Shown: in pieces, positions 5,775 through 50,048 of the stretch
How positions within the stretch are numbered: position 1 is the first letter of the stretch
Layout of the letters: each line of letters opens with the position of its first letter
Source: an uncultured Nitrososphaerota archaeon
GTDB taxonomy: Archaea; Thermoproteota; Nitrososphaeria; Nitrososphaerales; Nitrosopumilaceae
Assembly: GCA_963701075.1 (NCBI GenBank)
Contig: OY969559.1
Location: forward strand, 832,001-896,000
Direction of reading: 5' to 3'
DNA: 64,000 nucleotides
Program-made: the position numbers and the translations under genes
The notes under the pieces: generated by a model
Database searches by the model: none
What the model was told of the DNA's origin: nothing
What the model saw: the letters and a program-made list of their open reading frames with translations, nothing else

Positions 5775-5920
5775 ACAAGAAAACAAACGTTGCAAGATTT
5801 TAATTGTTATTTTACAAATATCAAGTTTTCTTCATGATGGATTGTGTGCCAGGCCAGATTAGGCGTGTGACATCATCTGTTGTGAAACATGGAAATGAAA
5901 GATGACGATCCTGAAAAAAT
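5775..5920 (+). repeat. Left arm of perfect 146-bp inverted repeat
   Basis: Exact reverse complement of 9601-9746, checked base by base. Confidence 0.97.
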
Positions 5921-9600: not shown

Positions 9601-9746
9601 ATTTTTTCAGGATCGTCATCTTTCATTTCCATGTTTCACAACAGATGATGTCACACGCCTAATCTGGCCTGGCACACAATCCATCATGAAGAAAACTTGA
9701 TATTTGTAAAATAACAATTAAAATCTTGCAACGTTTGTTTTCTTGT
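9601..9746 (-). repeat. Right arm of perfect 146-bp inverted repeat
   Basis: Exact reverse complement of 5775-5920. Confidence 0.97.
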
Positions 9747-25027: not shown

Positions 25028-26266
25028 TCAGTCTCTTGACAAGACCTGATTCATTATGGACAGGCCTTGTTCTATCTGATCTTTTGTTATCACAAGGGGT
25101 GGTATTATTCTCAGGGATTTCTGGCCTGCACCAAGTGTGAGAAGGCCATTTCTGAACAATTTGGCCAACTTTTTCTCTCTGCGTGCTCTGGTGTCAAACT
25201 CTAGGCCAATCATGAGGCCCAGTCCTCTCACATCAATCACTCCTTTTTTGCCTACAAGTTCTTGCAATCCTTTTCTTAGCAGGTTGCCCATCTTGGTTGC
25301 ATTTTCTAACAACTTGTCACGTTTTATGACCTGAATAGTCCTTGTTCCTACAGCCATGTCTATTCTGCTGCCTCCTCCCCAAGTGCTAGAAAGAGCAGAC
25401 CTGTCTCTTGGTTCAAATCTCTTGTTGTATATTGTAGCTCCCACCTGCAAAGCCTTGGCTATGCTCATGATGTCAGGTGTTACTCCGTAATGCTCAAAGG
25501 CCCACCACTTGCCGGTATGGCCAATACCTGACTGTACTTCATCTAAAATCAGCGGCACACCATACAGCGTGGCGCACCTTCTCAAGTTTTTGATGAATTT
25601 TTTGCTTGCAACATAATATCCGCCCTCCCCTTGCACAACCTCGGTTAGAATGAATGCAATCTTGTTCTCTTTTAGCAAAGATTCCGCAGCATCAATTTCA
25701 GGATCATTGTCATTTGTACAGAACTTGATTCTCTTTACAGGAAACTCTGGAAAGTTGTACTTGTGAACTGGTCTGCTAGCTGTAAAGCTGAGTGCCCCAA
25801 GAGTCCTTCCATGAAATGCCCCAAAGCACGAGATTCCAGGAAGAGGGCCCATCTTTCTGTATGCAATCTTTATTGCATTCTCTACTGCTTCTGCACCACT
25901 GTTGATAAAAAATCCCTTAAAGTTTCTTGGTATTATGGTTGATATTGTCTCTGCAAGGTCTGCATGTTCTTTGGAGTAAAAGTCCTGGCCTGCAATCTTG
26001 TGAGTTCCATTTGTAGAGTATTCCGCAAGTACTTCCATGACATCTGGATGCGAATATCCTATGGGGCATGCGCCAATGTTGGAAGTAAAATCAAGAAATT
26101 TGTTGCCGTCTGGATCCTCTATGACACAGTCATGACCGTTTGCAATGACTAGAGGATACATGAAAGTAGAATCATACGCATATTTTTTCATTGTATTTAT
26201 GATGCGCCTTGAATTTGGTCCTGGTAGATTGTGGTTCATTGTACTGTTTTCCTTGGTGTTATTCAA
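25028..26266 (-). CDS. Class III PLP aminotransferase (GABA/acetylornithine type)
   Basis: NSGAEAVENA, FHGRT, EVVQGEGG, DEVQSG and SIAK motifs. Confidence 0.9.
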   Translation of the reverse strand: MNNTKENSTMNHNLPGPNSRRIINTMKKYAYDSTFMYPLVIANGHDCVIEDPDGNKFLDFTSNIGACPIGYSHPDVMEVLAEYSTNGTHKIAGQDFYSKEHADLAETISTIIPRNFKGFFINSGAEAVENAIKIAYRKMGPLPGISCFGAFHGRTLGALSFTASRPVHKYNFPEFPVKRIKFCTNDNDPEIDAAESLLKENKIAFILTEVVQGEGGYYVASKKFIKNLRRCATLYGVPLILDEVQSGIGHTGKWWAFEHYGVTPDIMSIAKALQVGATIYNKRFEPRDRSALSSTWGGGSRIDMAVGTRTIQVIKRDKLLENATKMGNLLRKGLQELVGKKGVIDVRGLGLMIGLEFDTRARREKKLAKLFRNGLLTLGAGQKSLRIIPPLVITKDQIEQGLSIMNQVLSRD

Positions 26267-35702: not shown

Positions 35703-36392
35703 TTGAAACTTGGATCACTTTTCTCAGGCGGAAAGGACAGTACCTTTGCCATTTACAAGGCAAAATCTGAAGGCCATGACATATCATGTCTTGTTACCAT
35801 ATTTCCAAAATCTGAAGAAAGTCATCTACTACACCATCCAAACATTGGGCTTACTGTACTCCAGGCAAAAGCTATGAACATTCCGCAAATTACTGTCGGT
35901 CTTGATTCTGATGATACCAAAATAGAGGTTGATAATCTAAAAAAAGCGTTAAAGACCGCAAAAGAGCAGTTTGGAATAGAGGGAGTAGTTCATGGGGGAA
36001 TCCGTAGTGAATTTCAGAAAAACCACTTTGAAACAATTTGTCGCAGTATGAATCTTGACGTGATCGCTCCGCTTTGGAATGTAAACGAGGCAAGCTATCT
36101 GCGTGAGCTGATACAATCTGGGTTTCAGTTTATTGTTACAAGTGTTACTGCACAGGGACTTGACGATTCTTGGCTTGGAAAAGAAATAACTGCACCAGAT
36201 GTTGAAAAATTAATTGCCATGTCATCCAAGTTTGGGTTCAACGCATCGTTTGAGGGAGGAGAGGCGGAGACATTTGTGGTATCATGTCCTTTGTTTTCTG
36301 GACGCATCAAGATTGTAAAATCAAACCAAATATGGGATGGGTACAGAGGAAGGTTTGAAATAACCGAAGCTGTTTTGGAAGAGCAATGCTAG
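35703..36392 (+). CDS. dph6: Diphthine-ammonia ligase (PP-loop ATPase)
   Basis: LFSGGKDS, APLW and FEGGEAETFV motifs. Confidence 0.88.
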   Translation: MKLGSLFSGGKDSTFAIYKAKSEGHDISCLVTIFPKSEESHLLHHPNIGLTVLQAKAMNIPQITVGLDSDDTKIEVDNLKKALKTAKEQFGIEGVVHGGIRSEFQKNHFETICRSMNLDVIAPLWNVNEASYLRELIQSGFQFIVTSVTAQGLDDSWLGKEITAPDVEKLIAMSSKFGFNASFEGGEAETFVVSCPLFSGRIKIVKSNQIWDGYRGRFEITEAVLEEQC

Positions 36393-37712
36393 ACAGCCTC
36401 AAGACAGGCCTCCGGGCTGCACTGAAAAAAATAGTCAACTCGTCTGCCATAGATGAGGCACTAATCAAGGAATTATCTAAAGACATCCAGAGGGCACTGC
36501 TACAGTCTGATGTCAATGTAAAACTTGTCTTTCAAATTACAAAAAATCTGGAGGAGCGCTCTCTCAACGAGACTCCACCTCCGGGGCTATCAAGAAAGGA
36601 TCACATTGTAAAGATCTTGTATGACGAACTTTCAAAATTGCTGGGAACAGAGAACGAGTACATTTTCCAGCCAGGTAAGATGAACCGCGTACTAATGCTT
36701 GGAATCCAGGGTAGCGGCAAGACAACAATAACATCAAAACTTGCAAAATATCTGACAAAGCAGGGATATAGGGTCTGTGTAGTTGGAGCAGACACGTACA
36801 GGCCTGGAGCCTTGACTCAACTCAAGACAATGTGTGAAAAGGCAAATGTTGAAGTCTATGGCGAGGAAGGCAACAAGGACTCGCCTGAGATTGTAAAAAA
36901 TGGCCTGAAACATTTTGAGGGAAAGAATTTTGATATTGCACTGATAGATACTGCTGGACGACACAAGGAAGAAAAAGATCTACTCGACGAAATGGTTCGA
37001 ATAGGTCAGGTAGCAAACCCTGACTTGGCATTGCTCATCATTGATGGTACAATAGGCCAGCAGTGTTACAACCAGGCAGAAGCGTTTCACAAAACAGTTC
37101 CAGTTGGCGGTATCATCATAACAAAATTAGATTCTAGTGCAAAGGGTGGTGGGGCTCTTGCTGCAGCGGCCGCTACCGGTGCTAAAATAATGTACATTGG
37201 AACAGGTGAGCGAATTGACGATTTGGAAAAGTTTTCGCCAACTAGATTTGTCGGAAGGATGCTTGGAATGGGAGACATTCAGGCCCTGCTTGACATGGCA
37301 GCAAGACTGGAGACTGAGGGAAACGAAGAGAGGCTCAAGCGCATATCGCATGGCAAGATGAACATGGAAGATTTCTATTTCCAGATAGAAGAAGCTTACA
37401 AAGGCAGGAGGCCTGCGAAGCATAATGGAGAACATGCCTGGAATTTCTGGAATGGTAAAAGAAGACCAGCTAGACCAACAGGAAGAGAGGATGGAAAGAT
37501 GGAGGTATGCAATACAGTCCATGACAAAAGAGGAAAAGGCTGATCCAGATCTAATCAATGCATCTCGCGTAAAGAGAATCGCGCGTGGCTCTGGCTGGCC
37601 TGAACATGAGATAAAAGAGTTACTCAAAGCATACAAGAACTCTAAGACCATGATGAAAGCATCAAAGGGCAGGCAATTACAGGGAATGCTGCGCAAGATG
37701 GGTCTTGGATAA
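36386..37712 (+). CDS. srp54: Signal recognition particle protein Srp54 (split by indel at ~37393)
   Basis: GIQGSGKTT, DTAGRH, TKLD..AKGGG and LGMGD motifs; M-domain SMTKEE...RIARGSG in the next frame. Confidence 0.95.
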
Positions 37713-37915: not shown

Positions 37916-40246
37916 ATGCCATTAGAGCAAAACACCGGACTTGTTCGTAGTCTATCTCTATTAGACATAACTATGATTGGTATTGCCGCAATGATAGGTG
38001 GCGCCATCTTTAATCTAGTAGGTCCTGCAATGAATCAAACAGGACCATCTCTTATCATTGTCTTTCTTGTCAGCGGAATAATCAGCCTTTTTACTGCTTT
38101 GACTTATGCTGAACTTGGTTCTGCATTTCCAGAAGCCGGTGGTGGCTATAGATGGGTAAGAGAAGGACTCCCAAGACCAAATGCCTTCATCAGCGGTTGG
38201 ATAGCTTGGTTTGCTCACATGATAGCAGGCAGTCTCTACGCTGTTTCGATCGGGGATTTTTTTGGAGGTTTTCTTACAAGTGTTGGCGTTGCATCTGAAT
38301 ATGGAGGAGTGCCACTAGGAAAAATTATTGCAATAATTTCGATAATAATATTTACATACGTAAATTACAGAGGAGTTTCACTCACCGGTAAAGTAGGAAA
38401 CATACTTACAATTACACAGCTAGGAATAATAGTAATTCTAATAGTTGCTGGCTTGTTTGCAATGGCTTTTTTCAATCCTCACTGGGCAGTAAACTTTCAA
38501 CATCTTGCTCCAAATGGAATAACTGGTTTTATTTTGGCGATGGGAATTACATACATTGCTTTTGAGGGTTATGAGATAATCGTACAAGCCGGAGAAGAGG
38601 TAAAAAATCCAAAGAAAAATATTCCAAGAGCAATTTTTATTGCGTTGGGAGTAGTGACCGCTCTCTACATAGTTTTTACTTTCTCATTTCTTGGAGGATT
38701 GAGTAGTTCTGTTCTTGGAAAGGAAGTCTGGCAATACATTGGTGGTTATCAGGATCTTGGAATTGCACAGGCTGCTCAACACCTTGTACCATATGGAACA
38801 ATTGTAGTTTTTGCAGGAGGAATGATCTCAAGTGTGGCAGCCCTTAGTGCCACCACTTTCTCATCAAGTAGAGTTTCATATGCAATGGGCAGACAATACA
38901 ATCTGCCATACATTTTCAGCTCTATTCATGCCAAATATCACACGCCTCATTTTGCAGTGATCGCTTCAGGGTTCATCATGTTGATAATGGCAACATGGCT
39001 CCCATTGGAACAAATCGCAATTGTCGCCGGTGTGATGTTTCTATTTCTCTTTACTCAGGTTAACTGGGCAGGAATTAATATTCGAAGACTCTACGGCCAC
39101 AAGCTAGACTATGGGTTTAAAATTCCTCTATTTCCACTCATGCCAATAATTGGCATAATTTGTAAGGCAGGACTTGCCATTTTCCTGCTGATATACGATC
39201 CACTGAGCTGGGCAATCGCCATTGTGTGGATTATTATAGGATTTTCAATCTACAAATTGTACATCTCAAAAAAAGAGATAGAGCATTATGCTCCCCTAGT
39301 CGCAAACATGGGTCCTTCCAATAGAAAAGATTACCGCATAATGGTTGTTTTTAACAAAAAAACTGTTGAAAAACTTGTAAAGATTGCATCTGCCATAGCA
39401 AAAGACAAGGACGGTGAAATCTCGCTTCTAAATGTGGCAACAATACCTCTCCAGATTCCACTCTCGATGGCACATGGTTTTGCCGATCCTGTTATGAAAT
39501 CATTTGATGAATTAAAAAAGAATCCCAGTTTTTTAGAATATCGATATCTTGTCAGACTGTCACATGATACAACGGAGGCAATTCTTGCTACTGTGGAGGA
39601 ACAGGGAATAAATCTTCTTATAATGGATTTCTTTGATCTTCGAAATAATAGAAAATTGATGACTCTTACTACGTGCGATATTCTTGGGGTAAGTATTAGG
39701 AAGGAATTTGAAAAAGAACTTTCGCATATCGTAATTGCATATGACAAAGGAAGGCACTCAGATTTCGGGCTCGAAATTGCAAATTCATTTTCTAAATCCT
39801 TGGACAGCAAGATAAGAATTTTGAGAGGAGTTGTAGAATCGCCTGAAGAGGAACGGGACATCCTGAGTAAAATAAACGAAAAAATGTTTGATCTTGATCT
39901 TAAAAAAATACCAGTTGAAAGAATTTATCCCACAAGTATTGATGTAACGAAAGATCTGCTAGAAAACCTAAACAAAGACCCCGAGGTAGTAATAATTGGA
40001 GCAGGAAATCAACCAGAACAAGCTTTCAGTCCTAAAACATTGGAAATAGTAGAAAAATCTCGTTTCAGTGTATTTGTAGTACGTAATTCAAGACTTTCTG
40101 AGATCAAAGCAAGATACTTTTGGCACATGATTGCTCCAAGACTAAAAGAGAACAGATTTGTTTACAAAATATACAGTACATCTCTTCGATTAATAAAATC
40201 AAGGAAAAGAATATCCGATGAAGAATACTTTTCTCCAAAAATCTAA
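37916..40246 (+). CDS. APC amino-acid permease with C-terminal universal-stress-protein-like domains
   Basis: MIGGAIF, YAELGSAFPEAGGGY and AFEGYE motifs; ~12 TM; soluble USP-like tail. Confidence 0.9.
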   Translation: MPLEQNTGLVRSLSLLDITMIGIAAMIGGAIFNLVGPAMNQTGPSLIIVFLVSGIISLFTALTYAELGSAFPEAGGGYRWVREGLPRPNAFISGWIAWFAHMIAGSLYAVSIGDFFGGFLTSVGVASEYGGVPLGKIIAIISIIIFTYVNYRGVSLTGKVGNILTITQLGIIVILIVAGLFAMAFFNPHWAVNFQHLAPNGITGFILAMGITYIAFEGYEIIVQAGEEVKNPKKNIPRAIFIALGVVTALYIVFTFSFLGGLSSSVLGKEVWQYIGGYQDLGIAQAAQHLVPYGTIVVFAGGMISSVAALSATTFSSSRVSYAMGRQYNLPYIFSSIHAKYHTPHFAVIASGFIMLIMATWLPLEQIAIVAGVMFLFLFTQVNWAGINIRRLYGHKLDYGFKIPLFPLMPIIGIICKAGLAIFLLIYDPLSWAIAIVWIIIGFSIYKLYISKKEIEHYAPLVANMGPSNRKDYRIMVVFNKKTVEKLVKIASAIAKDKDGEISLLNVATIPLQIPLSMAHGFADPVMKSFDELKKNPSFLEYRYLVRLSHDTTEAILATVEEQGINLLIMDFFDLRNNRKLMTLTTCDILGVSIRKEFEKELSHIVIAYDKGRHSDFGLEIANSFSKSLDSKIRILRGVVESPEEERDILSKINEKMFDLDLKKIPVERIYPTSIDVTKDLLENLNKDPEVVIIGAGNQPEQAFSPKTLEIVEKSRFSVFVVRNSRLSEIKARYFWHMIAPRLKENRFVYKIYSTSLRLIKSRKRISDEEYFSPKI

Positions 40247-40317
40247 TTTTATGCTGCAGATTTACTAATTCTAGTCTTACAGGATTCAAACTTTCAGTGA
40301 GTTCAGGTTGTAGAGAT

Positions 40318-40533
40318 CTAACTATAATATTTTTTCAAGAAGTGTTCTTTGTTTTCATAGTATAGACGTAAAACATAATCATCAAGTGATTTTAGTAGAT
40401 AAAGAATTCCACCTTTTCTGATTTTTTTGATCTCTTTTATCGTGTAGATTTTATCAAAGTCTCCCTCGTAATCTGTTATTCGTACCATGTCTCCACGATG
40501 AAACGTGTTCATAGTCATCATCCGAGACATCAA
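40318..40533 (-). CDS. Small hypothetical protein (KOW/SH3-like)
   Basis: FHRGDMVRI...YTIKEI...YLLKS; start uncertain. Confidence 0.55.
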   Translation of the reverse strand: MMSRMMTMNTFHRGDMVRITDYEGDFDKIYTIKEIKKIRKGGILYLLKSLDDYVLRLYYENKEHFLKKYYS

Positions 40534-40611
40534 GATGCATGAATATAGATATTATTGTTATTTGATAACATTTTCAAATAGTTAATATGTTACTAGATAA
40601 CGCAATTACAA

Positions 40612-40670
40612 CGATGAAGGAACCATCGTTTGTTCTTGATGAGACAGACCTTTTGATATTGGAACGCATG
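40612..40670 (+). repeat. Left arm (59-bp perfect core) of inverted repeat, covering the Lrp 5' end
   Basis: Exact reverse complement of 42882-42940; diverged homology extends to ~40540 and ~40694. Confidence 0.95.
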
Positions 40671-41129
40671 GCACAGGATGCAAATGTGTCATTTAAGCAG
40701 TTGGCGCAGTCGCTAAAAGTTGATCAGCGTACAATAGCAAAAAGGATAAGCGAAATGAAACAAAATGGAGTTCTTAAGACAAAGATTGAGATCGACTGGC
40801 CTCGACTAGGGCTTGGAATTGCAACCTATGTTGGAGCCGAGACAGGCCTTGGAGAAAAAGATGTTGCCAAACTACAGGAATACATTAGAAAGGAACCGCG
40901 CATTACAGAGGCCTATTCAACAATAGGCGGTCAGGAATATTTTTTCAAAGTGGTGGAGACAGACCTGCAAAGCTTAAGAGATGTTCTCTTACCTCTTGAG
41001 CCAATTACTTCAAAGCTCACAAGCTCCATAATATCTTCGAACATAAAAGATCATGATGATGTAACTCTTTTGCATTTTTTAAGACAGAGAGGATTTTCAC
41101 GTAAGAAGAAAAAGACTACACCTGGGTGA
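40614..41129 (+). CDS. Lrp/AsnC family regulator
   Basis: LDETDLLIL...DANVSFKQLA HTH; AYSTIGGQEYFFKV; ATG 40614 is shared with the duplicated copy. Confidence 0.88.
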   Translation: MKEPSFVLDETDLLILERMAQDANVSFKQLAQSLKVDQRTIAKRISEMKQNGVLKTKIEIDWPRLGLGIATYVGAETGLGEKDVAKLQEYIRKEPRITEAYSTIGGQEYFFKVVETDLQSLRDVLLPLEPITSKLTSSIISSNIKDHDDVTLLHFLRQRGFSRKKKKTTPG

Positions 41130-41150
41130 CTAGAAGCATTGACCGTCTAA

Positions 41151-41714
41151 CTATTTTTTAATGTTATCTCTGTAAAGTGTAGGCTCGTATGTTTGATTAG
41201 CATTTAGCAAATCAAGGTACGAGTCTACATTTAGACAATATCCTGCTAGGATATTTAGCTGTTTTACCCCTGAATCAGAATTAATTTCAAACCATATGTT
41301 GGTTATGAACTTGTTATTATTTGGATTATGTATAGACCAAGGTGAATTCGAATCTTCAATAAGCATTGTTTCCCCCACTATGAAAGATTTTCTTGTACCG
41401 CCAATTATTAATTCAAGACCATGTGAATCTATGAATTTTTCTAAAGTAAGCAAAGGATTTTTATTGTATATCTGTTCTGCTAGCTGTTTTGGAATTTTAA
41501 GAGGCATCGATACGCCATGTTTGCCTCCTTTAGATCTTGTACAAACTAAAATATGAAAATCTTCAAATTTTTTCAGATAAATGGAAAAAGTTTGTATTTT
41601 GCCGTTTAATGTTTTTATCGCATCATAATTTGTTATTACATCATTAATCTGCGATTCATTAATCTGTGATTCATTCATTAATTTTATGATTTTGTCATTG
41701 ATTTCTAAATTCAT
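41151..41714 (-). CDS. AT-rich hypothetical protein
   Basis: 187-aa ORF; 15-bp tandem duplication (NESQI x2) at 41641-41670. Confidence 0.6.
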   Translation of the reverse strand: MNLEINDKIIKLMNESQINESQINDVITNYDAIKTLNGKIQTFSIYLKKFEDFHILVCTRSKGGKHGVSMPLKIPKQLAEQIYNKNPLLTLEKFIDSHGLELIIGGTRKSFIVGETMLIEDSNSPWSIHNPNNNKFITNIWFEINSDSGVKQLNILAGYCLNVDSYLDLLNANQTYEPTLYRDNIKK

Positions 41715-41990
41715 GACTGATTTTTATTTACCATTTTTCAATTAAGGTTTTCCATTTGTTATAGCCTTGAGTGACTATTTTACAAACTTGAGCGTGTGTT
41801 GACCATTCAAATCTGTGTGTAGTCTAAGGTATCTTTGACCGTCCGACCCTCTCATCGTCTATAGATTCCACTCACAACTCGATGACCGTCTCATGATGAT
41901 CACGTAATGATTTGTTGTAATTTCCTGTGTCTCATTTTTATGGGATCGCATTTTTATTCCGGTACGACTTTCTCTTAGTAGATAAGTTGT

Positions 41991-42521
41991 ATGGTTGTTG
42001 TAGAGAAGGTTACAAAAACTAAAAGTATGTCATTTAGATTGCCAGAGGAGATGGCGGATTTGCTAGAAACAGAATCGTCAGTCAAAAACATAAACACAAG
42101 CACTCTTCTGACTCAGATATGCAATCACCATTTCGGATATGAAGGCAATGTCGGCAAGGCAGGGCTGATTGCATTTCCAAGACCGTTATTGATCCGATTA
42201 ATGGAGGGACAGCCGGAAAAACAAGTAATCGCATTGGCAGAACATATCTCACAAGATGTCATGATAGATATCATGTCAGTCTTGGAAACGGAATACACTG
42301 TAGATAGTTTCTTGCATTTCATGCAATCATGGGCGCATTCATCCAAGATTGCATTCAGACGCGAAATTAAAGGACAGTTGAATACGGTGGTCATCCAGCC
42401 TGAATTGGGCAAAAATTGGTCGCTATACTTGGGACATTTATTTAAAAATGTAATTGAAGAGTTAGCACAGAAACGGGTTGCAATAAACGTAACCGACAAA
42501 AGTGTAATGTTTAGGTTCTAG
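41991..42521 (+). CDS. Ribbon-helix-helix transcriptional regulator
   Basis: KSMSFRLP...NTSTLLTQI; ELGKNWS; paralog of 17273..17803. Confidence 0.75.
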   Translation: MVVVEKVTKTKSMSFRLPEEMADLLETESSVKNINTSTLLTQICNHHFGYEGNVGKAGLIAFPRPLLIRLMEGQPEKQVIALAEHISQDVMIDIMSVLETEYTVDSFLHFMQSWAHSSKIAFRREIKGQLNTVVIQPELGKNWSLYLGHLFKNVIEELAQKRVAINVTDKSVMFRF

Positions 42522-42848
42522 GTTACATCTTTTTCAAAGTAATTTAATAAAATACGTATAACCCATTCATAACTTAATCCATACTTTCCATTTCAGTTTA
42601 AATTCTCACAACTCTTAACCAAAAAATTAACATTCAAATGATAAGTATTTTGAAATATGTTGTGAACATTGTAATGTAAAAATATGTTCAAATGTTGATA
42701 GCTAAAAATACAAACTCAAAACATAGGACAACTGGGAAAATCATTAGAGCATTGAAGAAGCAAAAATCAAAATGTTCTCAAACCATGAAGTTACACGCAA
42801 ACAGTTTCTGAATACTTGCTCCATTTTTTACACAGATCTTGAAACATT

Positions 42849-42938
42849 CTATTCAGAAAATGGTATGTTTACATCATATGTCATGCGTTCCAATATCAAA
42901 AGGTCTGTCTCATCAAGAACAAACGATGGTTCCTTCAT
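42849..42938 (-). pseudogene. Truncated Lrp stub MKEPSFVLDETDLLILERMTYDVNIPFSE*
   Basis: First 19 codons identical to the Lrp at 40614, then diverged, with a stop after 29 aa. Confidence 0.85.
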
Positions 42939-42940
42939 CG
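42882..42940 (-). repeat. Right arm (59-bp perfect core) of inverted repeat
   Basis: Exact reverse complement of 40612-40670. Confidence 0.95.
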
Positions 42941-43110
42941 CTATAATTATGTCATTGAATTACATATTAATTGCGAAAAAATGTTATTTGATCACCGAAA
43001 TATCTATATTAGCGTAATTTGGTGAGGGAGCTGATTGTCTCATGATCACAAAGATTGAACGGATTAAACACATTGTGAAACCCGATCTTCAGTGGGTTAA
43101 AAAGGCGTAA

Positions 43111-44727
43111 GTGACCTATGTGGACATAATAATACTGGCAGTAGTACTGGCAGGTTCTCTTGGCCTTGCAGTTATTTTTGGACGATATATGGCAAGGATG
43201 ATTGTTTACGAGAAACGACCTCTTGAGAAGACATTGGGTAGGGTAGAGGACGGCTTCTATCGTATAATTGGTGTAGACAAGTACGAACAGATGACATGGA
43301 AGCAGTATTTTCTTGCCCTGATTGTAACAAATGTCATTGCAGCAGGATTTCTAATGGCCGTACTTCTTTACCAGAACAGTCTTCCCCTATCGCCAAAACC
43401 AGGCCTATCGTTTGATCTCGCATTCAATACAGCTGCTTCATTTGTTACAAATACTAATCTCCAACACTACGCCGGTGATCAACAACTTTCAATCTTTTCT
43501 CAGATGGTTGGGCTGATATTTCTGATGTTCGTAGCACCTGCCTCTGGAATAACTTCATGTTTTGCATTTGTCCGAGCTTTCATCAGAAAAGAGTTTGGAT
43601 TAGGAAATTTCTATGTTGATTTTACTCGAATAATACTAACACTTTTGCTGCCGATTGCCTTTATCTCGGCCCTTTTATTGCTGCTCCTTGGAGTCCCACA
43701 GACGCTAGACTCATCAATAACAGTAGGTAATCTTCAGGGCGGTAATCAAACAATCACGATAGGACCTGTTGCCTCTCTTGAATCCATAAAGCAACTTGGA
43801 AGCAATGGTGGAGGATTCTTTGGTGCAAATTCAGCACATCCATATGAGAATCCAAATGGTCTTTCAAATGTTTTTGAGACCATCTTGATGCTAGTCATTC
43901 CATTTTCATTGCCCATAGCATATGCTCATCTACTGGGTAGAGGTAGAGGGTTATCAATTCTTGCAGCCATGCTAATTGGCTTTGGAGTAATGCTTGCGCT
44001 GGGATTATCAGAGCATAGCGGACCAACAGGTCTTGAGACAAGATTTGGAAACTTTAGTACCACTTTATTCGTGGAATCATCTCTTTCAACAAACACTGGC
44101 GCAGCAAATGCTGCTCTGTCAGGACTCTCACCAAACGCAATCATTGGAGGATACTTGGGCATGTTTATACAAGCAATTCCGGGAGCTGATGGTACCGGTA
44201 TGATGACAATGATAATCTTTGTCATATTGACTCTATTTATTGTCGGTCTCATGGTTGGCAAGACACCAGAATTTATGAGCATGAAGATAACTCCTAGAGA
44301 TGTAAGGCTAGCGGCATTTGTATTTTTGATTCACCCCTTATTCATACTAGTCCCAACAGCAATAGCATATACATCAGAAAATGCACAGAGCGTTCTTGGA
44401 ACACCGACTACAGCTGCGACATATAATCAAGTCTTATACGAATTTACATCTGCCTCTGCAAACAACGGCTCAGATTATCTTGGAACTTCGGCAAACACCC
44501 CATTTTTCAATTGGTCCACAGCATTGGTCATGTTGATCGGGCGTTACGCTCCTATAGGATTGATGCTTGCAATAGCAGGTTCGTTTACAACTAGGGATAG
44601 AAAGGAAGTGGTCGAACCAATCAAAACCTCTGGTCCACTCTTTATTGGTGTTTTATCAGTTATGGTATTCATATTAACAGCTCTGACATTTTTTCCATTC
44701 TTGGTTATGGGACCATTTTCAATGTAG
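43111..44727 (+). CDS. kdpA: K+-transporting ATPase subunit A
   Basis: FNTAASFVTNTNLQHY, GSNGGGFFGANSAHPYENP, GLMVGKTPE and ANNGS motifs. Confidence 0.96.
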   Translation: MTYVDIIILAVVLAGSLGLAVIFGRYMARMIVYEKRPLEKTLGRVEDGFYRIIGVDKYEQMTWKQYFLALIVTNVIAAGFLMAVLLYQNSLPLSPKPGLSFDLAFNTAASFVTNTNLQHYAGDQQLSIFSQMVGLIFLMFVAPASGITSCFAFVRAFIRKEFGLGNFYVDFTRIILTLLLPIAFISALLLLLLGVPQTLDSSITVGNLQGGNQTITIGPVASLESIKQLGSNGGGFFGANSAHPYENPNGLSNVFETILMLVIPFSLPIAYAHLLGRGRGLSILAAMLIGFGVMLALGLSEHSGPTGLETRFGNFSTTLFVESSLSTNTGAANAALSGLSPNAIIGGYLGMFIQAIPGADGTGMMTMIIFVILTLFIVGLMVGKTPEFMSMKITPRDVRLAAFVFLIHPLFILVPTAIAYTSENAQSVLGTPTTAATYNQVLYEFTSASANNGSDYLGTSANTPFFNWSTALVMLIGRYAPIGLMLAIAGSFTTRDRKEVVEPIKTSGPLFIGVLSVMVFILTALTFFPFLVMGPFSM

Positions 44728-44737
44728 GAGACGGGTC

Positions 44738-46864
44738 ATGGCAAAGACAACAATCACACAATCAATATTTGATGCAAGGATGCTAAGGGATTCAGTAATA
44801 AAGCTCAGCCCCATTTATCTTTCCAAAAAAAGTCCCGTAATGTTTGCAGTAGAGATGGGATTCTTCTTGGTTTTAGGAATTGGTCTTTTGCACAATCCAT
44901 CTTCGTATTTTGTAAATGAAAAAAGCATGTTCTACTTTGAATCAGCAATAATTCTAATACTTACAGTCTGGTTTGCAACATTTTCAGAGTCTCTCTCAGA
45001 AGCTCAGGCAAGGGCAAAAGTTGATTCCCTTAGAAGTCTTGAAAAAGAAGTTCAAGCAAAAAAACTAGTTGATGGGCAGGAGGTCATAGTTCCTTCTAAA
45101 AGCCTCAAAATGGGAGATAGAGTACGGGTCTACGCAGGCGATATAATACCAAGAGATGGTATCATTACAGAAGGGAAGGCATTCATAGACGAGTCCATGA
45201 TGACTGGAGAATCAAATCCGGCCTTCAAGGAAAAAGACAATCCAGTACTTGGGGGAACCAAGGTTGCAAGTGACAAGATAGTAGTTGAGATCACTGCAGA
45301 GGCTGGCAAGAGCTTTCTTGATGAGATGGTCAGCTTAATTGAGAGTGCCACAAGACCCAAGACAAAAAATGAGATAGCTCTTACTATATTACTTGCTGGT
45401 CTTTCGTTAATTTTCATAATAGTGGTTGGAACAATGCTGTTCTTTGGTTATTATCTTGGTTACCATATGGATATCTCGGTACTCTTAGCATTGCTTGTGG
45501 CCTTGATGCCAACTACAATAGGGGCATTAATGCCTGCGATAGGCGTTGCTGGAATTAACAGGCTAGCAAGAGACAACATTGTAGTAAAATCCGGAAAAGG
45601 AGTAGAGGCTGCAGGAGACTGCGATGTTTTGATATTGGACAAGACAGGTACAATTACAGAAGGAGCACGTAGAGTTATTGCATTTGTTCCCATGGAAAAA
45701 TTCACCGAAGAAGATGTCATCGAAGCAGCCTACGCTTCATCATTCAACGACTCCACACATGAAGGAAAATCCATAATCGAGCTTGCAAATGAGAAAAAAA
45801 TTGAACCATCATTTATGATGGAAGTTCTGGCATCCAAGCCAATTGACTTTAGCTCGGAGACTCGTTATAGTGGGATTGAACTATCTCCAAAGAAAAAATC
45901 ATACGCAAAACAAGATTTGGCTTCAAAAACATCTGCAGTCCAGACAAAAACTAGAGTCTCTTCTAGGGTAGAAGAACTAGAAGAGTCCAACACGCAAGTA
46001 AGAATTCTGAAAGGAGCAATAGAGGCCATGCTGAAGATTGCCCCAAAAGTCAATGAACCTGAATTGCGATGGAAAGCACAAGAAATATCAAAAAATGGTG
46101 GAACTCCACTTGCGGTTGCCATAAATGATGAGATAATAGGACTAATTTCACTAAAAGACAATCTCAAAAAAGACATTCGAGAAAAGCTTGAGGAAGTTCA
46201 CGTATCTGGTATTAACACTGTGATGATTACAGGTGATAACTTGCTTACGGCTCAGATTATAGCAAAAGAGGCAAATATTGACCAGGTCATAGCTGAGGCC
46301 AAACCAACTGACAAGCTAAACCGGGTTGTAGAGGAACAGGTAAAGGGCCATGTTGTAGGCATGATTGGCGATGGCACCAATGATGCGCCTGCACTTGCCA
46401 AAGCGGATGTAGGACTTGCAATGAATCGTGGCACTGCTGCTGCAAGGGAGGCTGCAAACATGGTAGACCTAGACTCTGATCCTTCAAAGATACTCAACGT
46501 AGTAAAGCTTGGAAAGCAGTTACTCATGACACGTGGTGCAATTACAACATTTTCAATTGCAAATGATGTTGCAAAATATTTTGCAATTCTTCCAGCAATA
46601 TTCTCTAGGATAAATCCAAAAGTCGAAGTTCTCAATTTAATGCAGCTCCACAGTCCTGAAAGTGCTGTCCTATCTACATTGATATTCAATGCAATAATAA
46701 TTCCTGTACTAATTCCGTTATCACTACGGGGTGTCAAGTACAAGCCAGAATCACCCCAGAGGACATTTATCAAAAATATGATGATATACGGAGTAGGAGG
46801 AGTAGCCCTTCCATTTGCTGGCATAAAGGCAATCGACTTGTTGGTGTCACTCTTTTGGAGATGA
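44738..46864 (+). CDS. kdpB: K+-transporting ATPase subunit B
   Basis: TGES, PTTIGAL, DKTGTIT, GDGTNDAPALA and TFSIANDVAKYF motifs. Confidence 0.97.
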   Translation: MAKTTITQSIFDARMLRDSVIKLSPIYLSKKSPVMFAVEMGFFLVLGIGLLHNPSSYFVNEKSMFYFESAIILILTVWFATFSESLSEAQARAKVDSLRSLEKEVQAKKLVDGQEVIVPSKSLKMGDRVRVYAGDIIPRDGIITEGKAFIDESMMTGESNPAFKEKDNPVLGGTKVASDKIVVEITAEAGKSFLDEMVSLIESATRPKTKNEIALTILLAGLSLIFIIVVGTMLFFGYYLGYHMDISVLLALLVALMPTTIGALMPAIGVAGINRLARDNIVVKSGKGVEAAGDCDVLILDKTGTITEGARRVIAFVPMEKFTEEDVIEAAYASSFNDSTHEGKSIIELANEKKIEPSFMMEVLASKPIDFSSETRYSGIELSPKKKSYAKQDLASKTSAVQTKTRVSSRVEELEESNTQVRILKGAIEAMLKIAPKVNEPELRWKAQEISKNGGTPLAVAINDEIIGLISLKDNLKKDIREKLEEVHVSGINTVMITGDNLLTAQIIAKEANIDQVIAEAKPTDKLNRVVEEQVKGHVVGMIGDGTNDAPALAKADVGLAMNRGTAAAREAANMVDLDSDPSKILNVVKLGKQLLMTRGAITTFSIANDVAKYFAILPAIFSRINPKVEVLNLMQLHSPESAVLSTLIFNAIIIPVLIPLSLRGVKYKPESPQRTFIKNMMIYGVGGVALPFAGIKAIDLLVSLFWR

Positions 46865-46872
46865 TATAGAAG

Positions 46873-47349
46873 ATGAGGACATTAAAGAGCAAAGTATTTT
46901 CACCCTCAATTAGGATCGTCGTATTGATGATTGTTACAACAGGTGTTGCATATCCGCTTCTTGTAACTGCAATAGGGCAAACTACACTACCATACCAATC
47001 AAATGGCAGTCAAGTTGTACTCAATGGTACAGTTGTTGGCTCCGAACTAATAGCTGAAAACTTTAACTCGACTAAATTCTTCCAGCCAAGAAATTCGACT
47101 GACTCGGGCTCAGGTGTGGATCCAGACATCACTCCAGATGAGGCCTATTCGCAGATACCTGCAATAAGTAATGCCACCGGGATACCAGCTAATGCTTTGA
47201 AAACACTAGTTGAGCTTGACATTGAGAGAAACAAGGATGCAAATGGCTTGCTTTTTGCACCAGATTACGTGAGAGTATTAAATCTCAATGTAGAATTGGT
47301 AACGCAGTATCCAGAAATTTATCAAGTCCCTGCGAACGGAGGACCTTGA
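46873..47349 (+). CDS. kdpC: K+-transporting ATPase subunit C
   Basis: YPLLVT...NGS...GSELIA...SGSGVDPDIT...VLNLN. Confidence 0.93.
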   Translation: MRTLKSKVFSPSIRIVVLMIVTTGVAYPLLVTAIGQTTLPYQSNGSQVVLNGTVVGSELIAENFNSTKFFQPRNSTDSGSGVDPDITPDEAYSQIPAISNATGIPANALKTLVELDIERNKDANGLLFAPDYVRVLNLNVELVTQYPEIYQVPANGGP

Positions 47350-47351
47350 TT

Positions 47352-47438
47352 ATGGATGGCATATTGGCAGCATTTGTAGGGGCACTTCTAATTTCTGCAG
47401 GGGTATTAACGTACTCACTACTAAGGGCCGAAAAGTGA
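47352..47438 (+). CDS. kdpF: KdpF-like 28-aa membrane peptide
   Basis: MDGILAAFVGALLISAGVLTYSLLRAEK*; starts 2 nt after the kdpC stop; YxLLRxEK end resembles KdpF. Confidence 0.72.
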   Translation: MDGILAAFVGALLISAGVLTYSLLRAEK

Positions 47439-47506
47439 ATTTCAGACAAGTGGGGTTACAATCATCCGAATTATTTGTTTTTTAAAAGTCCATATCTTAC
47501 AGTTCT

Positions 47507-50048
47507 TCAATTATGCAATGCTTGCAATAGATTGTTCTCAATTTCAAAGAACCACTGCTGGACAGAAGTGCCTGCAACAAACTGGTTCAATGAATAAAGA
47601 ATACCTGCAAATACAAGATAACCCAAGACAATAAACAATATTCCTGAAAACAATGTGTTTGTATGCATGGCAAATTGCTTGTTGCCTAAAACCAACTTGA
47701 TCTCTTTTCCGCGAATTATTCTCCATGCAATAGAGTCCCTGTCAACCCTACCAAGATATGCCGAGACTAGAATCAATGGGATTGCAAGGCCTGTGGCATA
47801 TGAGAATAAGAGCAGGCTTCCAGTTGGTAGCGAGACTGTAGTTGCTGCAAGAAGCAAGATTCCAACTAGTATTGGTCCAACACACGGAGTCCATGACATT
47901 CCAAGTATGCAGCCAAATGTGAATGAACCAAAGTAAGTGACAGGACTCTTGGGCGTAATCTTGAGACCGGGTATTCCCCTGCCAGACAAAGTGTATAGTC
48001 CAAAGAGGATCATTGCAATACCTGCAATCTCTGAAAATACTCCAATGTTTGATTTGAGGTATGTGCCAACAAACGCTGCAGACATTCCCAAAAGCACAAA
48101 GACGATGACAAGTCCAAGAAAGAATGAAACTGACATGCCAAACACATTCATTTTTGATGTTCGAAATGTGTATGCCATGTATGCAGGCAAGATTGGAAGA
48201 GTACATGGAGATGCAAATGATATGAATCCTGAAAGCACAGCTATTGGTACAAGCAAAAATATGGGACCTTGAAGACTTTGTTAGTCCGACATCTGATGGG
48301 ACAAAGTTCTGGCCTGTCTGACCAGTGCCGTTTATCAAATTATTTAACCAAAAATCTTCTTGCTTTTGTTTCTCAATGGTGTCAATTCTGGTTTTGGCAT
48401 TTGTAAAATCTGACATCAGGTTGTTGTCAACTATGAACTGTGATGCCTTGACGTAATAGTAGCCTTCATCAGCAGGACTGATATTATCTGCTTGGTTGCC
48501 TATCGTCTTTATCGCAGCATCAAGGTACTCGATATTATTTGTGTCCATGTATAGTCTCAATAAAGCATATGAGATTATCCCATTTTCTTCAGAGGGTTTT
48601 ACTAGACTGATCTGTTCTCCTGGCTTGTAGATGTTGGTGTCAGGACTGTTTCGTTCAAAGAATCCTCCGCTGTACCAGTCATAGAGATTATCAAGAGAAT
48701 AATTGGCAAGCCCTTGCGCCGTTTTCAGATAACTCTGATCTCCAAGTGTATCATATCCGTCAACAAAAGCAAGAAGCAAGTATGCATTGTCCAAAAGATT
48801 CCCGCTGACTCCCCTGGTACCGTTTACATCTTGGTAGTGATATGCACCATTGTCTGACACTAGGTTGTTCTCAAAAAAATCAAGGGAACATGCTGCCATA
48901 TCGTTATACTTTGTATCTTTTGTGACATTGTACATGTAGAGATAGGTAATGATGGCCTCAGAGTTCCAGTCGGAAAACTTGGTCTTGTCTATTGCTGGTT
49001 TTTCATCAGGTCTTGGGTTTTTCCAATAGTATGCCTCTTCTGGACTAGCGTCGGTGTCTCCGTAAAAGCCACCATCTTGCTTGTCATACCAGTTAGTCTC
49101 AATATAGTTTTGCGTCTTGTTTACAACATCTTTTACCATGGCATCGTCCGGGGTTATCAATAGAAGATGCTCGTATGTCTTGAGAAGTTTTGCATTATCG
49201 TATAGCATTTTTTCATAATGTGGCGGGCTCCATGTTCTGGTTGTGCCGTACCTGTGAAATCCACCGTCTATTGGATCAAACAACTTGTAATCTGTGAGGT
49301 TTTGGATGTCAGTGTATTGGTTTTTCAGAGTATTCTGAACTAGACCAAGATATGTCGTGTTTCCTGTTTCTTGATACATGTCAAGAAAGAAATCAAGCGT
49401 TCTAGCTTCTGGAAACTTTTGTCCAGTTCCAAAACCCCCGTAAATTGTGTCATATAACTTTAGGTTGTAATTGGCATATGCGTCTGGGAGCGCAGCAAGT
49501 TGATTTTCTGTCAGAATTACTTGAGGTTGCTTTTGGTAACTGTACGAGATTTCAGATGAAAATTTATGTGAGTTGACATAGTCTACCGCCTTCTGAAAGT
49601 TTGCTAACATATTTTGTACAGGTCTTGGCCCAGAATATCCAAAGAGTATCTGTCCATCAGGTGTCAGTATTGTAGTGGATGGCCACCCGCCTTCCAAGTA
49701 CTGCCTTGTCAAATCTTCTCGTTTGTCAGAGTCGATGTATACTGGAATAAAGCCTTGATTTACCATCTTGACTACATCTTGGTTGTATAGGTAATCCTCG
49801 CTTTCATACACTTGACAGTAATAGCACCAAGAAGGTGCAGTCAACAACAACATTATGGGCTTATTTTCTTCCTGCGCTTGCCTGAAAACCTGTGGGCCGT
49901 AGTCCTGCCAATTGATCAAGTGCTTTAGTTCCTCGGCATTCTGGAAAGAATATTGAGTTGCGGATGCAAGTTGTTCTGTCGTTTCTACGATGACAAGAAA
50001 AATCACACTCAGGGTTACAAGGATAATATATGATAAATTACCTGCCAA
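47507..50048 (-). CDS. Exported thioredoxin-domain YyaL/DUF255 protein probably fused to a CcdA/DsbD TM domain (indel at 48273-48277)
   Basis: INWQDY...WCYYC...GGWPST...GGFHRY...HYEKMLYDNA; then ASPCTLP and WTPCVGP in the shifted frame. Confidence 0.82.

Follow-up and report, generated by a model that had tools for sequence, protein, structure and literature searches.

The Lrp-kdp locus and its inverted repeat

We analysed a stretch of 64,000 nucleotides (nt) of genomic DNA from an uncultured archaeon of the Nitrosopumilaceae (contig OY969559.1, positions 832,001 to 896,000; hereafter the window), in which an inverted repeat connects the gene of an Lrp/AsnC-family transcription regulator (Lrp) with the upstream region of kdpABC, the operon of a K+-transporting P-type ATPase. 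The genome is a single contig of 1.9 Mb with a G+C content of 38.6%, and an archaeal amoA gene is present. Across the locus, the order is SRP54, a gene fusing an amino-acid permease with Usp, a small conserved gene (orf71), a bidirectional promoter region (P'), Lrp, the genes orf187 and orf176, a non-coding spacer, a truncated copy of Lrp (the stub), a second control region (P) with a leader open reading frame (ORF), and kdpABC. A preliminary description of this DNA had pointed to the repeat and proposed that it acts as a promoter-swap inversion switch, i.e., that recombination between the two copies changes the promoter from which Lrp is read.

The two arms, obtained by a repeat search and compared base by base, lie at 40542-40694 on the plus strand and at 42858-43010 on the minus strand; in the repeat search they measure 153 nt, are 80% complementary, and stand 2163 nt apart. 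They hold one exact run of 59 nt, positions 40612-40670 (plus strand) being the reverse complement of 42882-42940 (minus strand), just as previously described. This core begins 2 nt 5' of the Lrp start codon (ATG, 40614) and spans 19 codons. Diverged homology extends from it in both directions, as also announced: upstream through the promoters, where the three blocks named at the time are found as exact matches of 12 nt (40542-40553), 10 nt (40565-40574), and 9 nt (40582-40590), and downstream, more weakly, about 24 nt further into the gene (16/24). Outside the core the arms agree at 64 of 96 positions (48/72 upstream plus the downstream part), and at such an identity the chance of 59 consecutive matches would be about 0.67^59 = 5e-11. 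No third copy of the core exists in the 1.9-Mb genome. The cores enclose 2211 nt, a segment that, flanked by inverted repeats, has the outline of an invertible one. We also noticed that a hairpin of 7 bp is possible in the first bases of the core (40610-40630; 42942-42922); it includes the Lrp start codon and is followed by a T-rich run, and its pairing, examined by eye, is not kept in the related genome G001.

The left core lies in an intact gene. Lrp (40614-41129, plus strand, 171 amino acids (aa)) combines an N-terminal winged helix-turn-helix with a C-terminal AsnC-type ligand-binding (RAM) domain, the Pfam matches being HTH_24 (E = 1.2e-9, residues 8-55, 38 bits for a cut-off of 21.9), HTH_AsnC-type (8e-8), and AsnC_trans_reg (3e-6, residues 83-138, 27.5 bits for a cut-off of 25); none of the NCBIfam equivalogs reaches its cut-off. 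The protein is 97% identical to that of genome G006 and 97.6% identical to that of the metagenome contig L049 presented below. It belongs to a native Lrp unit (40505-41136, plus strand) made of the start of a leader ORF, P', and the whole of Lrp, which is colinear with the relatives and reversed relative to its flanks.

The right core opens the stub, an ORF of 29 aa (42849-42938, minus strand), whose first 19 codons are those of Lrp and whose tail stems from a divergent allele; in agreement with the preliminary description, it runs from 42938 down to 42849 and points away from kdpA, which starts at 43111 on the plus strand. Next to it lies P (42941-43110, plus strand), the bidirectional control region in a divergent allelic form, which contains a leader ORF of 22 aa (43043-43111) that ends at the kdpA start. 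The kdpABC operon (43111-47349, plus strand) consists of the consecutive genes kdpA (43111-44727), kdpB (44738-46864), and kdpC (46873-47349). KdpA and KdpC were recognized by Pfam (E = 1e-174 and 1e-34), and kdpB was assigned through its 81-94% aa identity to the genes located between kdpA and kdpC in relatives, which is also the range of aa identity of the kdp products to those of relatives.

Ancestral layout and the two alleles of the control unit

We searched 63 genomes of the same genus, including the present one (G000); 35 of them gave any match, and G012 enters the denominators only. A full Lrp gene placed directly back-to-back with kdpA was found at 24 loci in 23 genomes, and tblastn confirmed this at the protein level in 9/9 fetched loci, which answers in the affirmative the question, raised in the preliminary description, of whether relatives have a full Lrp divergent from kdpA. 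The control region between the two genes usually measures about 190 nt, the gap in G056 being nearer 600 nt. A second inverted copy occurs in none of the 62 other genomes. In the closest relative, G064 (permease gene 94.5% identical, Lrp about 93%, kdp about 91%), which is without the repeat, the order is permease, a different island of 3.5 kb, Lrp on the minus strand, control region, and kdpA on the plus strand. Given the back-to-back loci of the relatives and this order in G064, the back-to-back pair is ancestral and the present layout is derived. For the genus, these comparisons show an ancestral order in which Lrp stands back-to-back with a leader ORF followed by kdpABC.

The leader ORF is present in all of the 11 loci examined (window 43043-43111, L010, L024-L031, and L044), encodes 22-33 non-hydrophobic aa, and ends at most 14 nt from the kdpA start. 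Its C-terminal end is K/E/Q-R-T in 8 of the 11 loci and KRA in G064, and the copy in the window is quite different in sequence. Its product could act as a regulatory leader peptide for the kdp operon. This product being non-hydrophobic, unlike what is expected of KdpF, we do not give it that name.

Compared with window positions 42868-48500, the kdp genes of close relatives are mosaic. Identity in the flanks is 94-96% (96% for G006), and in the kdp genes it is 78-83% for G006, 78-87% for G068, and about 91% for G064; the kdpA genes of G068 and G006 represent a separate allele, at about 79%. Moreover, G002 carries two separate Lrp-kdp loci (C158 and C161). This mosaicism and the two loci of G002 suggest frequent allele exchange or transfer at the locus.

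The two copies present in the window differ in their closeness to the relatives. The left unit (40505-41136) is 91-92% identical in nt to G064, G068, and G006 and lies on the opposite strand with respect to kdpA and the permease gene. In contrast, the right copy (the 24-nt tail of the stub, P, and the leader ORF) is 35-71% identical to G064 per 50-nt bin, with the core within it at 94%, and kdpA beyond position ~43150 is at 82-98% per bin. The tail of the stub resembles a real but different Lrp, with Asp, Asn, Ile, Pro, and Phe at the positions where the relatives have them. Outside the lineage of the metagenome contig L048, described below, the best match of the P allele is 74% over 88 nt, and no donor was found among the sampled relatives. 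The right copy is therefore part of another, divergent allele of this control unit, and native-type sequence has replaced its core.

At the left junction, orf71 (40318-40512, minus strand, 64 aa from the ATG at 40512) occupies the place expected for the kdp leader ORF, under the kdp-side promoter of the left copy. This gene has no Pfam or NCBIfam family; its homologues, of 63-64 aa, are found at other places in relatives, and that of L049 is 90% identical in aa. The homology to orf71 and the homology to the leader ORF of relatives meet at the start codon, where they share ATGAA, so that orf71 is now read from the native kdp-side promoter. The blocks kept between P and P' are those kept in all relatives, and they can be described, in our naming, as TATA-like and dyad elements. 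As P and P' have kept the same blocks, both Lrp-side promoters look equivalent.

Several origins of this layout were tried and rejected. A staggered-break inversion duplicating its ends should produce arms without initial differences, but P and P' are about 67% identical, and G064 has no repeat. After a single inversion between the start codons of orf71 and of the leader ORF, the region upstream of kdp should resemble the one upstream of orf71 in relatives; instead, it is clearly an Lrp/kdp control region. A native paralogous pair of a second Lrp with orf71 does not agree with G013, G014, G005, and G022, in which no such cassette precedes orf71. Lastly, a single crossover in the core, starting from Lrp next to kdp, is contradicted by the parental linkage of the flanks (see below). 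What would fit the data is an origin from two homeologous inverted Lrp-kdp loci, through a crossover in the 5' end of kdpA followed by the loss of redundant parts; G002 does hold two Lrp-kdp loci.

Concerted change of the cores and competing explanations

We scanned metagenome contigs with a 31-mer of the core, and two were returned, L048 and L049, which overlap by 320 nt at 97.8% identity and were taken as one lineage. L049 is colinear with window positions 40239-42952 at 87.4% (orf71, P', Lrp, orf187, orf176, spacer, tail of the stub, core), and for L048 the colinear part is 42643-46521, at 89.6% (spacer, stub, core, P, leader ORF, kdpA, kdpB). This second lineage has the same layout in the same orientation, is 7-19% diverged, and has intact genes; identity between the lineages is 81-84% in the non-coding parts and 86-93% in the genes. 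The arrangement therefore predates a substantial split. The length of the stub ORF is not kept, being 29 aa here, 37 aa in L048, and 20 aa in L049.

The arms of L049 also agree in the core (58/59, with an exact run of 60 nt), their flanks being at 51/72 and 14-16/24, and the right core of L048 equals the native core of G064 (59/59). The core is variable among relatives: of its 59 sites, 2 are different in G064, 3 in G006, and many in G001 and others. At two sites, both arms of the present genome carry a derived state, namely a synonymous change at position 23 (GTC to GTT) and a His to Arg change at position 55 (CAC to CGC). These derived states are absent from both arms of L049, from the right arm of L048, and from the outgroups G064, G068, and G006 and 8 further loci. 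Shared as they are by the two arms, they require at least one arm-to-arm transfer after the split of the lineages. We thus uphold the earlier claim that a perfect core within diverged flanks reflects recombination, since the core is not conserved in relatives and two derived substitutions are unique to both arms.

The dead copy is spared decay inside the tract only. Between the lineages, the right core shows 2 differences in 59 positions; the tail next to it shows 6/24 (Fisher p = 0.006), and tail and spacer taken together show 72/371 (p = 0.001). Within a genome, the arms match at 59/59 (here) or 58/59 (L049) in the core and at about 67% in the flanks; between the lineages, the core differs at 2-3 of 59 sites; and the derived substitutions are common to both copies of one lineage only. 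Judged on these alignments, the pattern is one of concerted evolution by occasional arm-to-arm gene conversion. This genome has new differences at positions -2 and 0, and L049 has one at position 53, that no exchange has removed; exchanges are therefore roughly as infrequent as single substitutions becoming fixed in the tract. The flank markers have kept their parental combination in the two lineages, P' going with the Lrp body and the divergent P with the divergent tail. This parental linkage argues against crossing-over, because a single crossover would have exchanged the markers.

We consider it probable that the locus holds two inverted homeologous copies of the ancestral Lrp/kdp control unit, kept alike by occasional short-patch conversion without crossing-over. 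An old rearrangement would have left these two inverted copies of the back-to-back unit. The native one (P' and the whole of Lrp) lies reversed 2.2 kb upstream, its kdp-side promoter joined to orf71 at the start codon, and kdp is served by the divergent allele of the control region, which still has the first ~27 codons of its own Lrp in the form of the stub. General homologous recombination of the RadA type would pair the copies in the sole stretch where they are alike enough, and the stub would be repaired from the live gene. Identity would be maintained in this way over about 59-67 nt, the latest tract of this genome measuring perhaps 33-59 nt. Lrp probably still regulates kdp in trans, through the operator-like dyads kept in both copies, gene order being what points to Lrp control of kdp at all. 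Inversion would possibly be a rare by-product and not a function.

A number of points weigh against this explanation. Despite the long divergence, the stub and the spacer of 336 nt are still there; small genomes do not usually keep useless DNA for so long, and the two could have an unseen function. As conversion and crossing-over share intermediates, some rare inversion is also expected. Finally, one contig has the flipped junction. Eleven sequencing runs are listed, all of them as Logan contigs, and four (X1, X2, X3, and X5) were compared with the window. Logan contigs are built from 31-mers, which do not span the 59-nt core; every word is common to the two orientations, and these contigs therefore cannot tell them apart. 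In X3, a contig of 1885 nt runs through 40005-40611 and then 42940-41663 on the other strand, i.e., P', core, tail of the stub, spacer, and orf176; there is no cover at 40612-40797, and the contig with P begins at 42933. This contig is as expected from a flipped subpopulation; it is non-diagnostic, since the assembly may just as well have been forced through the repeat node.

X5, which comes from another study and has patchy cover, provides one more contig (record 21). It links the 5' end of a kdpA of the 79% type, 281 unmatched nt, and positions 40713-41281 without any difference, the last part being the Lrp body and the 3' end of orf187. Two readings of it are possible: a naturally recombined molecule that has the ancestral adjacency, or a chimera made in the graph where Lrp is most conserved.

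The flipped junction would also suit a reversible inversion without a recombinase, in which homologous recombination turns the 2.2 kb seldom, yet often enough to matter biologically, so that the population contains both states, with Lrp read from P' in one and from P, beside kdp, in the other. We regard this as unlikely, even though the arms demonstrably recombine and the flipped state would restore the Lrp-kdpA adjacency of the 24 loci. The preliminary description was right that crossing-over in the core, over 2211 nt, keeps Lrp in frame. The promoter swap that it expected to work as a switch was not borne out: the two Lrp-side promoters share the conserved blocks, orf187 and orf176 form a divergent pair with their own intergenic promoter region inside the segment, and a flip would therefore change little, with a small phenotypic effect. 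Both lineages, moreover, show one orientation and parental flank linkage, and the uncorrected differences make exchange rare. A stronger version, in which the cores would be a recombinase-free toggle, flips of the RadA type occurring at a measurable rate, the mixed population serving as bet-hedging for potassium or pH, and conversion preventing decay, seems to us distinctly doubtful. If it were true, a population of this acid-soil ammonia oxidiser would always mix cells whose Lrp is read from the kdp-linked promoter with cells that use the orf71-linked one.

Purifying selection without any exchange is improbable. Under it, the initial 59 nt of Lrp would serve the bidirectional promoter as a cis element, holding for instance Lrp binding sites, and both copies would be kept constant; this would account for the retention beside kdp of precisely the promoter and about 83 nt of Lrp and for a right core that evolves as slowly as the live gene. 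However, the same tract varies freely among relatives, and selection would not produce the same GTC to GTT and His-to-Arg changes in both arms of one lineage only.

A programmed inverton, whose core would be recognized by a site-specific invertase that flips the segment as a phase-variation switch, is very improbable. It would agree with inverted repeats around a 2.2-kb segment and with the presence of the repeat in the second lineage, but no invertase gene lies close by, and none can be assigned to the site. Indeed, the genome, 94.96% complete, has no match to the serine recombinase family PF00239 (Resolvase), and its four matches to PF00589 (Phage_integrase) lie at 565, 980, 1238, and 1773 kb. 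With the locus at 872-875 kb, the nearest tyrosine recombinase is more than 100 kb away, and none of the 27 ORFs of at least 90 aa between window positions 25028 and 58500 has a recombinase domain. What is identical is a coding piece of the native allele, and it stops where the homeology stops, which fits homology-limited conversion better than a recombinase site; five other local exact inverted repeats of the genome, compared with it, have no sequence in common with it. With parental linkage, constant orientation, rare exchange, and no dedicated enzyme, the promoter-swap inversion switch proposed at the outset is not supported.

The possibility that the assembler made the perfect core or the orientation, considered in the preliminary description as a polishing or assembly artefact, deserves next to no credence: residual assembly errors are likely in this contig (see below for SRP54 and position 43552), but the contig graphs of X1 and X2 have their breaks precisely where the core begins and ends, the core being its own 59-nt node and the four flanks showing 0 differences, and the independent contigs L048 and L049 carry the same repeat in the same orientation. 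As far as the repeat goes, the artefact is refuted; for the orientation in this strain, the assembly remains the basis. X1 may be the source sample. Its core node (42882-42940) has a depth of 8.5, close to that of each single-copy flank (7.6-9.8) and not double, and the core node of X2 has a depth of 14.8 vs 5.5-11.6 for the flanks.

Short-patch conversion between two inverted homeologous copies, the explanation that we prefer, has counterparts elsewhere. The inverted tufA/tufB pair of Salmonella undergoes concerted evolution by arm-to-arm conversion. Gene conversion between the arms of palindromes and inverted duplicates is described, in the part of the account available, for primate Y chromosomes (PMC4772468). 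As in these systems, so far as those descriptions extend, two inverted copies are held identical by non-reciprocal exchange, identity is higher within a genome than between lineages, and crossing-over would invert the spacer. Unlike in them, the Lrp-kdp tract is very short (59-67 nt) and sits in arms that are about 67% homeologous, one partner is a dead regulator stub joined to a live promoter, and the host is an ammonia-oxidising archaeon. The kind of process is thus known, as concerted evolution of inverted copies, and the instance in an ammonia-oxidising archaeon is new.

Invertons, in the available part of the preprint of Chanin et al. (bioRxiv 10.1101/2023.03.11.532203), are detected through reads that show both orientations and are predicted to depend on an invertase. 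That part reports 12 putative archaeal invertons in 42 archaeal long-read sets (36 Euryarchaeota and 6 Crenarchaeota), none of the 12 coming from datasets of the present phylum, and calls archaeal invertons minimally investigated. The Lrp-kdp repeat is like invertons, intragenic ones included, as there described, in that inverted repeats bound a segment, one of them inside a coding sequence, and a flip would change the promoter that reads the gene; it is unlike them in having no invertase candidate and in being known from contigs, not reads.

Divergent pairs of an Lrp/AsnC regulator and its target are a third comparison: in the relatives, Lrp and kdp share a bidirectional region of about 190 nt with TATA-like blocks and dyads, whereas here the pair is physically uncoupled, and the native promoter of the regulator also serves another gene. 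According to the available parts of two articles, kdp is present in 2 of 4 Nitrosotalea genomes (PMC5767755), kdpABCD has been described in N. devanaterra (PMC4836417), and kdp is discussed as a possible acid-adaptation trait of Nitrosotalea (PMC4836417, PMC5767755). The main text of PMC4836417 contains neither "Lrp" nor "AsnC", and that of PMC5767755 does not contain "Lrp" ("AsnC" was not searched for there); the supplements of both may list a neighbouring regulator. In the literature searched, supplements being outside the search, neither an Lrp-kdp pair nor a repeat of this type was found described for ammonia-oxidising archaea, nor was any report of recombination tracts in these organisms.

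As an example of short-patch conversion between arms, the locus is clean and datable, and it comes from the ammonia-oxidising archaea, a group that has no genetic system. It also presents the kdp control region as a hot spot of recombination: lineages have exchanged it, it has been split, and part of it is now wired to another gene. For those who scan genomes, the lesson is one of caution: a perfect core in diverged inverted arms signals exchange between the copies and is not by itself the sign of a switch.

Neighbouring genes, assembly details, and other repeats

Inside the segment, orf187 (41151-41714, minus strand) is convergent with Lrp. This orphan gene has no family in Pfam or NCBIfam, and its only PHROGs match is at E = 0.05; a protein query did not find it in any of the 62 other genomes of the genus. 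It is present and intact in L049 (86% aa identity). Directly upstream of it, an element of about 50 nt (41711-41770) has copies of 81-93% identity at C1:1198369-1198418 and in G003, G009, G010, and G021, and may be a shared promoter or a small repeat.

The divergent neighbour of orf187, orf176 (41991-42521, plus strand), is a member of a multi-copy family with an N-terminus weakly resembling Arc/ribbon-helix-helix proteins (a PHROG Arc-like repressor, weak match at E = 0.0097 over residues 4-51). It has paralogues in its own genome and homologues at other places in relatives, two of which adjoin Lrp in G002 C158, and the protein of L049 is 86% identical. Between orf176 and the stub, the non-coding spacer of 336 nt (42522-42857, without assigned strand) has the lowest identity of the block, 81-83% to L049 and L048, and matches no Rfam family at gathering level. 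Further out, the permease/Usp fusion gene lies at 37916-40246 on the plus strand. No tRNA gene was found in 30000-52000, the lone Rfam match is snoRNA-like, sub-threshold, and located at 40212-40286, and a scan for sigma-70 promoters and terminators is inapplicable to archaeal promoters.

Two details concern the assembly. The frame of SRP54 is broken, relative to G064, by an insertion of 1 nt (T) at window position 37397, leaving ORFs at 36386-37543 and 37425-37712; in G064 this essential gene is one ORF of 450 aa, and the insertion is probably a residual assembly indel. At position 43552, in kdpA, the window has A and the contigs of X1, X2, X3, and X5 all read G, likely through an assembly base error or a strain difference.

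The five other local exact inverted repeats that we compared in the genome measure 49-285 nt, with arms within 20 kb of each other; two further 40-nt pairs are listed outside these five. Unlike the Lrp-kdp repeat, they all have abrupt ends and no diverged flanks. The one located in the window is an exact repeat of 146 nt (5775-5920 and 9601-9746) around a 3.7-kb segment, the contents of which include a protein of 228 aa with a twin-arginine-like signal and a protein of 511 aa. The four others, at C1:208727-212588, 801644-803947, 1547404-1548853, and 638088-638873, have arms of 285, 78, 59, and 49 nt, respectively, 0.7-3.3 kb apart. The 78-nt pair lies among orf176-like (ribbon-helix-helix-like) genes, each partnered by a gene of about 158 aa. 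Finally, two arrays of 37-40-nt repeats in opposite orientations, spaced by about 73 nt and resembling CRISPR arrays, are found at C1:1906835-1915938, near the contig end.

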